Assembly (NCBI RefSeq): GCF_000026545.1
Contig: NC_011601.1
Source: Escherichia coli O127:H6 str. E2348/69
GTDB lineage: Bacteria; Pseudomonadota; Gammaproteobacteria; Enterobacterales; Enterobacteriaceae
Direction: 5' to 3' (one strand)
Length of the DNA: 64,000 nucleotides
Within the stretch, counting starts at the first letter, position 1; every line of letters begins with the position of its first letter. The notes below the pieces were generated by a model that worked only from the letters and a program-made list of their open reading frames with translations, was not told where the DNA came from and ran no database searches. Made by a program: the position numbers and the translations under genes. Of this stretch, positions 19,485-22,120 are shown in pieces.

Positions 19485-19559
19485 TTTTTCCTGCCAGCAG
19501 AGAGTAAGACATAGTGAAAAAATACGTGAACAATTCACACAGGTGTCAGGTCGGAAATA

Positions 19560-19740
19560 GCATAAATATGGATTAAATTGCTACGACATGTCGTTATGTG
19601 ATGGATATTCCAATTTTCAAATTAAGTTGAATTATTGAGATTATTATTAACTACCTAATTTTAAAGCAGATAAAATTCATAAAGTTCATCAATTGATAAT
19701 TGATATGGATTATTTCATAACCATGATATGGATTATGATG
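19560..19740 (-). promoter_or_regulatory. araE upstream region with three copies of ATATGGATTA (possible AraC half-sites)
   Basis: ATATGGATTA at about 19567, 19704 and 19727; the latter two are direct repeats about 23 bp apart, resembling AraC I1-I2 half-site geometry; coordinates approximate. Confidence 0.35.
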
Positions 19741-19762
19741 ATCTACAGGTATAAAAAACCCT

Positions 19763-19772
19763 GCCATGCGAC
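19763..19772. repeat. direct repeat GCCATGCGAC flanking IS copy 1 (second copy at 21323-21332)
   Basis: Identical 10-mer immediately outside both ends of the element; 9 or 10 bp may be true target-site duplication. Confidence 0.8.
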
Positions 19773-21322
19773 CTGTCTCTTGATCAGATCTCCTGATCAA
19801 GAGACTTCATCACCAGGTAACCCTCAACCATATCCTGAAGTCTGAACCAGCCATCCCACATGACTACCCAACCGGGGCGACCGGTGCGTTTGCTGTCATG
19901 CCATCGCCCCAGTTTCGCCAGTTTCAGACAGGCCCATTTCAGTGTCGGCATCTGTGACGGAAGCGGTTTTCCTTCCAGCTTAACCCACAGCAGTTTCCAC
20001 TCTGTCGGCGTCAGTATTTTCTCACAGCTGTCATTTTGTGTTTCTTCACTGATACCGCCCTGCCGCAGGCCCAGCACCCGCACCGCGATAAACGCCTTGA
20101 TAACCACCATGCGCTCGAGGTTATCCCGGGTCTGCATTCGCAGCGATTCCACACATGTACCACCACTTTTCCACGCCTTGTGGTATTCCTCTATCAGCCA
20201 GCGTCGCTCGTAATGGCTGACGATACGTCGCGCATCGGCGGCACTCGCCACTTTTTCTGACGTCAGCAGATGCCAGCAGGCGCCGTCCTCTGCCTGCTCC
20301 CGGCAACAGACATACGTGAGCGGGAGCGCCTGGCCGCTGTTGTCGGGATTTTTTATGCTGACTTCGCTGTAACTGATGAACATCCGGGCCTGGCGGGCTG
20401 CCCGCCCGCCTTTTTGCATCACATTCAGCGTGTGGCTTCCCGCGGTTGCCAGGACTTCCGGCAGTTCGAAGAGCTTGCCGGGTGCTTCTTCCAGCCGGCG
20501 ATTCTGTGCTGCACGCACCACGAAGCGCTGCCCGTGGCTGACTTTATAATGCAGGTAATGCCAGATATCCGCTTCCCGGTCACAGACAGTGATTACCCGT
20601 TTCTGTATCTCCCCCAGCCGTTCGGCCATGCGCTCCGAAGCCTGCTGCCAGCGGTAACTTTCTTTTTCTTCATAGGGACGTTCTTTTCGCTGGTGCTTAA
20701 CACCGTAGGTGTCCGTGGCACGACTCCAGCGCTGCTGTTCGATAAGACCGACTGGCAGGGCGCTGTCGGGGGCGTACATCAGGACAGAGTGAGCCAGCAG
20801 CCCGCGCGTCTTCGGGTTAGTGGTGGTATTCCCCAGGTCATCAGATGCCGTACTGTGACTGAAGTTAATGGTGGTGGTGTCTTCCAGCGCGAGGAGCAGC
20901 GGATGAGCCTCACATGCCCTTACAGTGGCGGTAAATCCGGCTTCGGCAATGGCTTGCGGGGACACAGACGGGTTACGTATCAGGCGGTACGCACCTTCAA
21001 CCTGAGCAGTGGACTGGGATGATTTCACAATAGAAAGACCTGCATGCTGAGCGAGAGAAGAGGCCAGTGACACAAGGCGTCGTGTACGACGCGGATCACC
21101 GAGACGGGCATGTCCAAACTGCTCGTTAGCCCATGAATAACAATCAGAAAGTACCATAACAGACCCGAAGAAAATGAAATATAAGAGAAGATCAACAGGT
21201 GAGGAAAAAGTTCAAAAAATCGCTGCCGGGGAGGAAGGAAACTACCGGATGGAAAGAGTCCCCCTAAAGCAGACTGACAGACATCACAAATCCCCGGGTG
21301 GGGATTTGTGTATAAGAGACAG
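19773..21322 (-). mobile_element. IS4-family, IS50-like insertion sequence, copy 1 (1550 bp)
   Basis: Termini CTGTCTCTTGATCAGATCT (left) and revcomp CTGTCTCTTATACACAAAT (right), matching IS50 inside and outside ends as I recall them; single 457-aa transposase ORF; flanking direct repeat; identical second copy at 43835-45384. Confidence 0.9.
19784..21157 (-). CDS. IS50-like (Tn5-type) DDE transposase (457 aa)
   Basis: Tn5 Tnp-like motifs LALEDTT, VCDREAD and YERRWLIEEYHKAWKSG (DDE triad and YREK signature); stop codon lies inside the left terminal repeat as in IS50. Confidence 0.9.
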   Translation of the reverse strand: MVLSDCYSWANEQFGHARLGDPRRTRRLVSLASSLAQHAGLSIVKSSQSTAQVEGAYRLIRNPSVSPQAIAEAGFTATVRACEAHPLLLALEDTTTINFSHSTASDDLGNTTTNPKTRGLLAHSVLMYAPDSALPVGLIEQQRWSRATDTYGVKHQRKERPYEEKESYRWQQASERMAERLGEIQKRVITVCDREADIWHYLHYKVSHGQRFVVRAAQNRRLEEAPGKLFELPEVLATAGSHTLNVMQKGGRAARQARMFISYSEVSIKNPDNSGQALPLTYVCCREQAEDGACWHLLTSEKVASAADARRIVSHYERRWLIEEYHKAWKSGGTCVESLRMQTRDNLERMVVIKAFIAVRVLGLRQGGISEETQNDSCEKILTPTEWKLLWVKLEGKPLPSQMPTLKWACLKLAKLGRWHDSKRTGRPGWVVMWDGWFRLQDMVEGYLVMKSLDQEI

Positions 21323-21358
21323 GCCATGCGACAGGGTCATAAAAGTAAGAGGAATGAA

Positions 21359-22120
21359 TTAACGCGCCAGCCAACCGCCATCCACGGCAATGGTATAACC
21401 ATTCACATAATCTGAAGCGCTGGAGGCAAGGAACACCACCGGCCCCATCAGGTCACTCGGCAGTCCCCAACGGCCAGCTGGAATGCGGTCGAAAATTTCC
21501 GCGCTACGTTGTTCATCTGCCCGCAGTTGTTGAGTATTGTTGGTCGCCATGTAACCCGGAGCTATCGCATTAACATTAATGTTGTGTTTAGCCCATTCGT
21601 TCGCCATCAATCGCGTCACGCCCATCACACCGCTTTTTGATGCGGTATAAGAAGGCACACGGATCCCGCCCTGGAAGGAGAGCATTGACGCGATATTGAT
21701 AATCTTGCCGCCATTGCCTTGCGCGATAAAGTGTTTCGCCGCTGCCTGAGACATGAAGAATACGCTCTTGATATTCAGGTTCATGACATCGTCCCAGTCT
21801 TTTTCGCTGAATTCGAGAGCGTCTTCGCGGCGAATCAATCCGGCGTTATTCACCAGGATATCAATATGACCAAACTCAGCTACCGCGCGATCCAGCAGTG
21901 CTGGAATGCCATCAATCTTTCGCAGATCGGCGGTCAGGCTTAAAAAACGACGCCCCAGCGCCGTGACCTGCTTGATGGTTTCAGTCGGTTCAACGATGTT
22001 AATGCCAACAATGTCACAGCCCGCTTGCGCCAGCCCCAACGCCATCCCCTGGCCCAGCCCAGTATCACAACCAGTGACGACCGCAACTTTACCTTCGAGA
22101 GAAAATGCACTTAAAATCAT
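21359..22120 (-). CDS. kduD: 2-dehydro-3-deoxy-D-gluconate 5-dehydrogenase, SDR family (253 aa)
   Basis: Track ORF 253 aa, SDR glycine-rich motif VTGCDTGLG. Confidence 0.95.
   Translation of the reverse strand: MILSAFSLEGKVAVVTGCDTGLGQGMALGLAQAGCDIVGINIVEPTETIKQVTALGRRFLSLTADLRKIDGIPALLDRAVAEFGHIDILVNNAGLIRREDALEFSEKDWDDVMNLNIKSVFFMSQAAAKHFIAQGNGGKIINIASMLSFQGGIRVPSYTASKSGVMGVTRLMANEWAKHNINVNAIAPGYMATNNTQQLRADEQRSAEIFDRIPAGRWGLPSDLMGPVVFLASSASDYVNGYTIAVDGGWLAR

Follow-up and report, generated by a model that had tools for sequence, protein, structure and literature searches.

ISEc13, an IS50-like insertion sequence of the IS4 family, between araE and kduD in Escherichia coli O127:H6 E2348/69

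The intergenic region between araE and kduD in E. coli O127:H6 str. E2348/69 is occupied by 1550 bp with IS50-like ends and one long open reading frame, which raises the question of whether this segment is a known or a new element, and whether it is intact and recently mobile. The window is the whole stretch of DNA that was analysed, 64,000 nucleotides of contig NC_011601.1, and all positions are those of the window. The initial annotation, made from the letters alone, described a Tn5/IS50-like element of the IS4 family that it could not name, while supposing that it might be catalogued. The flagged element is real, was correctly read and is already known: it is ISEc13. The segment at 19773-21322 is almost certainly a complete copy of ISEc13, belonging to the IS50 subgroup of the IS4 family and recently inserted between araE and kduD. 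What might be new is confined to the preference for certain targets, the varying length of the duplication, the terminator-like leader found across the family and the solo palindromes described below.

Table. Positions of the two ISEc13 copies in the window and of the features of the first copy
Feature	Position	Strand	Remarks
Left target-site duplication GCCATGCGAC	19763..19772		10 bp, after CCCT
Inside-end-type terminal inverted repeat CTGTCTCTTGATCAGATCT	19773..19791	+
Inside-end hairpin GTCTCTTGATCAG/ATCTC/CTGATCAAGAGAC	19775..19805		13-bp perfect stem, 5-nt loop
Dam sites of the inside end	19782-19785, 19787-19790, 19795-19798		GATC
tnp, 457-aa Tn5-type DDE transposase	19784..21157	-	Stop codon included; annotated WP_000244358.1, ISEc13 family transposase
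GATC upstream of tnp	21190..21193		About 35 nt upstream of the ATG
TTGAAC, putative -35 hexamer	21210..21215	-
Second, irregular leader hairpin, followed by CGATTTTTT	21214..21272	-	Minimum-free-energy fold
Outside-end hairpin CACAAATCCCC/GGGT/GGGGATTTGTG	21285..21310		11-bp perfect stem, 4-nt loop
Outside-end-type terminal inverted repeat CTGTCTCTTATACACAAAT	21304..21322	-
Right target-site duplication GCCATGCGAC	21323..21332		10-bp direct repeat, followed by AGGG
Second ISEc13 copy, inside ygfK	43835..45384	+	Same orientation as the first copy
Duplication CCACCATGC of the second copy	43826-43834 and 45385-45393		9 bp, flanks the ygfK insertion

The left end of the element starts with CTGTCTCTTGATCAGATCT and the right end closes with ...ATTTGTGTATAAGAGACAG. 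Across its full 1550 bp the element shares 100% identity with copies named "IS4-like element ISEc13 family transposase" in RefSeq (megablast, 5426 complete E. coli genomes), and it encodes the same protein, WP_000244358.1, with no difference detectable against the RefSeq copies. According to ISfinder practice, isoforms usually share more than about 95% nucleotide identity, a level that the match to the copies annotated as ISEc13 exceeds. The supposition of a catalogued element is thereby confirmed, with the name ISEc13 resting on the RefSeq product annotation. The same name was not found in the supplement text searched for PMC2266710. In E2348/69, about 30 places on the chromosome (30 by megablast) and two on plasmid pMAR2 match ISEc13, and two other O127:H6 assemblies have 27-29 such places.

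Members of the IS4 family are defined by a DDE triad with the YREK motif, a single open reading frame, terminal inverted repeats and a duplication of roughly 10 bp, and have the signature Y-(2)-R-(3)-E-(6)-K around the catalytic glutamate (PMC2266710). Those of the IS50 subgroup are 1350-1550 bp long, with ends of the form CW------Y---CA-A--W- and direct repeats of 8-9 bp (PMC2266710, Table 1). ISEc13 has one uninterrupted 457-aa reading frame without a frameshift, the triad and the YREK residues in alignment with Tn5, terminal inverted repeats, and duplications of 8, 9 or 10 bp at 17 sites, within the roughly 8-13 bp of the family. Its length and both of its ends fit the IS50 subgroup, and its repeats are mostly 8-9 bp, the two 10-bp sites being slightly outside the subgroup range. 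Since the transposase is only 43% identical to IS50R Tnp (188/441, global alignment), the element is a named relative of IS50 and not an isoform of it (IS50R/IS50L).

The transposase, in which LALEDTT, VCDREAD and YERRWLIEEYHKAWKSG are found, is encoded by the sole long reading frame of the element, on the minus strand. It matches the PDB Tn5 transposase over its whole length (E = 6e-84, phmmer against PDB sequences), which together with the ends described below places the element with Tn5 and not in an unrelated IS family, and it scores 514 bits against a cut-off of 160 for NCBIfam NF033590 (IS4 family transposase). The three domains of IS50-subgroup transposases are all present in Pfam, as Tnp_DNA_bind (PF14706), DDE_Tnp_1 (PF01609) and Dimer_Tnp_Tn5 (PF02281), in agreement with the full-length PDB alignment. 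The catalytic triad D93, D193 and E323 aligns with D97, D188 and E326 of Tn5, and Y316, R319, E323 and K330 of the YREK motif align with Y319, R322, E326 and K333. W295, K327 and R340, equivalent to W298, K330 and R342 of Tn5, are conserved as well. The initial annotation had read an intact transposase, clearly diverged from Tn5 Tnp but keeping DDE and YREK; this holds in every part, the reading frame being uninterrupted and the alignment with IS50R Tnp revealing no inactivating change. Unlike Tn5/IS50, ISEc13 has no Met at the start of the inhibitor protein: Gln52 stands in place of Tn5 Met56, and GTT, the next codon, is not a start codon. An Inh-like product from this position is therefore unlikely, and the Inh layer of IS50 control is probably missing in ISEc13.

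The insertion between araE and kduD can be compared with an empty site in FDAARGOS_144, which matches base for base across the junction and contains GCCATGCGAC only once. The araE-kduD site is uninterrupted in 5398 of the 5426 complete E. coli genomes, while the filled junction of the first copy is found in only three, all of the O127:H6 lineage, which indicates that this copy moved recently. The second copy in the window is identical to the first at 1550/1550 positions, and RefSeq annotates ygfK in E2348/69 as a pseudogene split by ISEc13. The ISEc13 transposase occurs at 15 further sites, 14 of which have 8-10-bp duplications, and numerous strains encode the identical protein, at many different locations. 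One might suspect a dead copy, complete in structure and retained by chance, where many E. coli genomes carry degraded fragments only (2991 of the 5426 genomes have some match to the element, but only 873 have a copy that spans 80% or more of it) and where one copy in strain A25 is frameshifted. Such a relic is nevertheless very unlikely, given an uninterrupted reading frame with all catalytic residues conserved, two identical copies each with its own duplication, an insertion confined to one lineage and an identical protein at many distinct sites. The identical copies and the insertion polymorphism point instead to a probably active ISEc13. The first copy splits a stem-loop downstream of kduD and puts tnp in the path of kduD read-through, while the second inactivates ygfK. 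It is hardly conceivable that the two copies came in together as the arms of a 25.6-kb composite transposon: although their direct orientation would leave one inside end and one outside end outermost, a usable pair, the direct repeats are separate for the two copies (10 bp for the first, 9 bp for the second) with none shared across the outer ends, the genes between them, from kduD to ygfK, are core E. coli genes in normal order, and almost every other genome has an empty araE-kduD site. As two identical direct repeats 22.5 kb apart, the copies make the interval between them prone to deletion.

Reference ends were taken from a real IS50R on plasmid pO86A1, whose outside end is CTGACTCTTATACACAAGT and whose inside end is CTGTCTCTTGATCAGATCT. 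The left terminus of ISEc13, which the initial annotation had equated with the IS50 inside end, is identical to that of IS50R at 19/19 positions. The right terminus, said to differ from the outside end at two of 19 positions, agrees at 17/19, with mismatches at positions 4 and 18 only. The two ends of the element agree with each other at 13/19 positions, the first nine included. The end motif has four exact matches in the window, which make up the two complete elements, and six matches when one mismatch is allowed, against 0.63 expected by chance. Besides these ends, ISEc13 has in common with IS50R/Tn5 (PDB 1MUH, 1MUS, 4DM0) the three-domain architecture, the DDE and YREK residues, an inside end that takes in the tnp stop codon (TGA) and carries Dam sites, and a further Dam site upstream of tnp. 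The two elements differ in length (1550 bp in ISEc13, 1534 bp in IS50R), and IS50R has neither the 13-bp inside-end hairpin nor the hairpins inside the outside end.

To place these features, the DNA of eight relatives was compared and their ends were located, with the exception of the ISPlu9 outside end. The transposases of the elements from Enterobacterales, Salmonella salamae and Serratia are 71-77% identical to that of ISEc13, followed by ISPlu9 of Photorhabdus (57%), ISPpr3 of Photobacterium profundum (53%) and a Vibrio element (51%), and all belong to the same clade. The inside-end terminus is common to all of these relatives, including ISPlu9. An inside end identical to that of IS50 beside a far diverged protein could also arise if the ends had been taken from IS50/Tn5 and the body from another element, a recombination that would explain a 19/19 end despite 43% protein identity. 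However, the Salmonella, Serratia, Photobacterium and Vibrio relatives, with transposases 51-77% identical, have near-identical termini (CTGTCTCTTGATCA... and CTGTCTCTTATACA..., one of them with a single base change), and the closest four relatives, at 71-77%, share all 33 nt of the inside-end hairpin. Since the conservation of the ends is a trait of the whole clade, no end transfer from IS50 is needed, and a recombinant origin is extremely improbable.

Tn5 moves by cut-and-paste: a transposase dimer synapses the ends, hairpins form on the transposon ends, and the 3' ends are transferred to staggered positions in the target. By homology with Tn5, the ISEc13 transposase would bind both 19-bp ends and bring them together as a dimer, and each end would be nicked; a hairpin would then form and be opened on each transposon end, leading to DDE-catalysed excision. 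Joining of the 3' ends to staggered target positions would duplicate 8-10 bp of the target. On this analogy we infer a cut-and-paste mechanism for ISEc13.

The three GATC sites noticed earlier at the left end start at element positions 10, 15 and 23, all within the first 26 bp; two more start at 1322 and 1418. In IS50R, Dam sites overlap the -10 region of the tnp promoter. The GATC upstream of tnp is invariant in eight relatives including IS50R (leader alignment), which fits and lends some support to a possible Dam control of ISEc13. The putative -35 hexamer TTGAAC has its counterpart in the six relatives whose outside-end side was examined, all of which carry it or TTGAAT after the T-run. A generic sigma-70 scan found no minus-strand tnp promoter, and its terminator-like matches, which lie on the plus strand inside the reading frame, were disregarded. 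Control of ISEc13 is probably IS50-like, in that a weak promoter with a conserved Dam site and the three Dam sites of the inside end would keep activity low.

The two perfect subterminal palindromes reported in the initial annotation, with stems of 13 bp and 11 bp, are both exact. As single strands they fold with energies of -19 to -25 kcal/mol (z = -3.9 to -5.3), and none of 200 shuffles is as stable; the inside-end hairpin accounts for -23 to -25 kcal/mol, with z of about -4 to -5.3. The outer arm of the inside-end hairpin is the terminal repeat and carries the tnp stop codon, while the inner arm encodes KSLD, the conserved C-terminus. Apart from the four relatives in which it is identical, shorter versions of the inside-end hairpin are found in ISPpr3, in the Vibrio element and at locus L019, while ISPlu9, like IS50R, has none. 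Since the outer arm is an invariant transposase binding site and the inner arm is coding, conservation or covariation of the inside end is not diagnostic of a selected structure.

At the other end, six relatives with transposases 51-77% identical have the same plan: a 19-bp outside end, directly followed by a GC-rich hairpin, after which come 5-9 T in a row and TTGAAC or TTGAAT. The Salmonella, Serratia and Vibrio elements and ISPpr3 share both this plan and the inside-end hairpin with ISEc13. The leader stems of the six differ in sequence, with compensatory double changes in 3/9 consensus pairs and G-U changes in some others. Judged from its sequence, the leader plan of the relatives is the signature of a predicted inward-facing intrinsic terminator followed by a -35 element, and such a terminator would stop transcripts from outside before they reach tnp. 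In ISEc13, the outside-end hairpin sits where the relatives have the hairpin plus T-run. It keeps the outer part of their stem (AAATCCCC/GGGGATTT), lengthened by CAC/GTG. Unlike ISPpr3 and the Salmonella, Serratia and Vibrio relatives, ISEc13 has an insertion of roughly 63 nt that splits this first hairpin from the T-run. The outside-end hairpin itself lacks a T-run, which makes it doubtful that it acts as a terminator in ISEc13. The second, irregular hairpin, located in or next to the ISEc13-specific insertion, stands before CGATTTTTTGAAC and is a possible weak inward terminator in the predicted fold. The hairpins just inside the outside end may be what is left of an inward-facing terminator common to the family, one that would protect tnp from read-through transcription. 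A Rfam scan of 19500-21600 on both strands (E <= 1) gave no match and hence no known antisense or leader RNA family.

The choice of target was examined at 17 independent ISEc13 sites with a duplication, two in the window, 14 in other genomes and one on a metagenome contig. Tn5 makes a fixed target duplication of 9 bp, whereas that of ISEc13 is 8-10 bp long and bracketed by CCCY and RGGG. The duplication is 8 bp at ten sites, 9 bp at five and 10 bp at two. An exact CCCY on the left and RGGG on the right bracket it at 11/17 sites, and most of the others have near variants such as CCCG/GGGG, CTCC/AGGG or CCCTCT/AGAGGG. In the first, unbiased set, 6/10 sites have the exact bracket, compared with a per-position frequency of 1.6e-5 in the window (binomial p ~4e-27). 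For the six similarity-ranked sites only the right flanks are independent, because these sites were ranked by the similarity of their left flanks to that of the first copy. ISEc13 targets include terminator-like hairpins by kduD, lysP, rcnB/yehA and yccJ/agp, as well as BoxC-like repeats, ibs-associated hairpins and coding sequence in ygfK and vat. Full-length relatives have the same target habit, for example TCT/CCCTGAGGG/AGA at locus L020.

The duplication length tracks the spacing between CCC and GGG, which is unusual for a DDE transposase and suggests that two stem-loop junctions are recognized instead of a fixed stagger. In that case one CCC/GGG stem-loop junction might be read by each subunit of the transposase, perhaps on extruded hairpin DNA. 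Targeting of REP palindromes has been described for elements of five families (PMC1525189). Like ISEc13, IS1397, ISKpn1, IS621 and ISRm22 favor small palindromic targets that can form hairpins (PMC1525189). These REP inserters belong mostly to the IS3 and IS110 families, ISRm22 being an IS4 member of another subgroup, and all of them target REP units, whereas ISEc13 goes into CCCY-N8-10-RGGG sites, among them terminators and BoxC-like repeats. No published account of CCC...GGG hairpin-loop targeting by ISEc13 was found in the literature searched, and this habit may be undescribed so far.

A further observation concerns the inside end. In many E. coli genomes the match is confined to nucleotides 1-33 of the element. 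In E. coli B this match is a perfect 35-bp palindrome, CTGTCTCTTGATCAGATCTCCTGATCAAGAGACAG, within a BoxC-like repeat of the lldD-trmL interval, and the K-12 allele has about 79 other bases in its place. An exact scan of one genome per species yielded 13 further solos, each at a locus of its own: Serratia silvae has five, an Escherichia sp. and a soil MAG have two each, and S. proteamaculans, Salmonella diarizonae, Rahnella woolbedingensis and Budvicia aquatica have one each. The solos, found in Escherichia, Salmonella, Serratia, Rahnella and Budvicia, have the form CTGTCTCTTGATCAG-N5-CTGATCAAGAGACAG, which matches the inside-end hairpin, and most of them are centered in CCCTCTCC...GGAGAGGG palindromes. 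None of the 14 solos examined is flanked by a 9-bp direct repeat; several have inverted-repeat flanks, which are perfect for 13-16 nt at loci L021 and L031. The full-length relative of S. salamae (L013) and the S. diarizonae solo (L030) were considered as occupants of the same locus, but only 19 and 25 nt of their flanks are shared, so that they lie at different places in the chromosome.

Slippage from one AAGAGAC repeat of the element to the other would yield the exact 35-mer, but it predicts flanking direct repeats, which are absent in all 14 solos. For this reason, and because several flanks are inverted, slippage is downgraded and fold-back priming is preferred. In this hypothetical route, after a break the 3' strand would fold back on the inside-end hairpin, prime outward synthesis and re-anneal in the palindromic target. 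The solo 35-bp palindromes may then be excision scars. Taken together, these observations can be read as a clade that, unlike Tn5, inserts between CCCY and RGGG 8-10 bp apart, typically in the loops of GC-rich stem-loops (intrinsic terminators, BoxC/PIT triplex repeats, ibs/sib hairpins), with a duplication that follows the spacing of the motifs, and that leaves solo 35-bp palindromes in the middle of BoxC-like repeats as scars of excision, made by fold-back priming and explained by the conserved inside-end hairpin. As a whole this reading is tentative, its chances being somewhat less than even.

For E2348/69, ISEc13 is confirmed as intact and recently mobile, but the flagged copy in itself matters little, as it is one of about 30 ISEc13 places in the genome of a well-studied enteropathogenic E. 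coli. The wider significance lies in the target habit. If it is true, a Tn5-like transposase that strongly favors CCC...GGG hairpin loops and varies the length of its duplication would make an instructive counterpart to the near-random Tn5 of genomics, and would provide a mechanistic handle on BoxC-type repeats as hot spots of variation. BoxC/PIT repeats show an excess of variation and unexplained instability, with no transposase remnants nearby (PMC4666352). If the solo palindromes are indeed excision scars, the ISEc13 clade would account for part of this instability.

ISEc13, an IS4-family element of the IS50 subgroup, inserts at a characteristic target. Its set of 17 insertion sites includes both copies in the window, one between araE and kduD and one inside ygfK, together with loci L035-L041, L044 and L085-L092. 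At 11 of these sites CCCY immediately precedes the target and RGGG immediately follows it, both as exact matches, an arrangement with a chance probability of about 4e-27 in the unbiased set (n = 10 sites). The target duplication is 8 bp long at 10 sites, 9 bp at five and 10 bp at two; its length therefore tracks the spacing between the CCCY and RGGG motifs. Frequently this target forms the loop of a hairpin, either a terminator or a BoxC-like one.

A terminator-like hairpin 3′ of kduD, reading ACCCTG-TCGCATGG-CAGGG-TTTTTT on the minus strand, holds the first copy in its loop; its stem halves, split by the element, are now 1.5 kb apart. Since the transposase gene (tnp) has the same direction as kduD, read-through from kduD should enter ISEc13 via the outside end. 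The second copy is identical and is flanked by a 9-bp duplication, CCACCATGC. As the two copies are direct repeats with 22.5 kb between them, the kduD-ygfK interval is deletion-prone. Comparison of the flanks of the pMAR2 copy reveals no target duplication; the left flank ends in CCCTCT plus 7 nt, and the right flank starts with 7 nt plus AGAGAGG. Recombination between two ISEc13 copies that had inserted into separate sites of one type would produce such flanks.

Positions of ISEc13 copies, parts and related sequences
Feature	Source	Position	Remark
First-copy flanks compared	window	19759-19772 / 21323-21336	
Hairpin 3′ of kduD	window	19753-19772 and 21323-21340	
tnp codons 52-53	window	20999-21004	
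Outside end	window	21304-21322	CTGTCTCTTATACACAAAT
Second copy	window	43835-45384	same orientation; interrupts ygfK
Second-copy flanks compared	window	43820-43834 / 45385-45397	
pMAR2 copy	L034	15027-16576	
Solo perfect 35-bp palindrome	E. coli B, L003	1501-1535	lldD-trmL spacer
Full-length relative, shared flanks	S. salamae, L013	373-391 and 1883-1907	
Solo palindrome, shared flanks	S. diarizonae, L030	2267-2285 and 2321-2345	
~955-bp deletion derivative, shared flanks	E. coli metagenome contigs		

The outside end and the synthetic hyperactive Tn5 mosaic end, CTGTCTCTTATACACATCT, agree at 17 of 19 positions, among them all of the first 16, with a T at position 4. Nextera adapter trimming could therefore cut true reads at ISEc13 ends. 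In the first ~55 nt of six relatives (L011, L013, L014, L017, L018 and L020; transposases 51-77% identical), the outside end is always followed by a GC hairpin, T5-9 and TTGAAC or TTGAAT. This leader, with compensatory changes in the hairpin stem, looks like an inward-facing terminator and then a likely -35 element, whereas that of ISEc13 carries an insertion of ~63 nt. Where Tn5 starts its inhibitor protein at Met56, ISEc13 has Gln52, followed by Val53 (GTT); judged from these codons, a truncated Inh-like protein starting here is probably not made.

One pair of short flanks, gaaaacccccagcYaggct and, across from it, ggctatgccggaggatatttatttc, encloses a full-length relative, a solo palindrome and a deletion derivative alike (comparison of L013, L030, L028, L049, L052 and L066). 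Budvicia has the left half of these flanks, and the wider loci are not alike. The flanks could represent a preferred target used repeatedly, or a larger mobile unit.

The solo palindrome, CTGTCTCTTGATCAG-N5-CTGATCAAGAGACAG, is the ISEc13 inside-end hairpin completed out to the terminal CAG. It occupies the centres of BoxC-like repeats in E. coli, as in the E. coli B example, and at 13 loci (L021-L033) elsewhere among the Enterobacterales and in a soil MAG. The flanks of L003 and L021-L033 contain no 9-bp direct repeat around the palindrome, and at several loci they are inverted. These solo palindromes may be excision scars.
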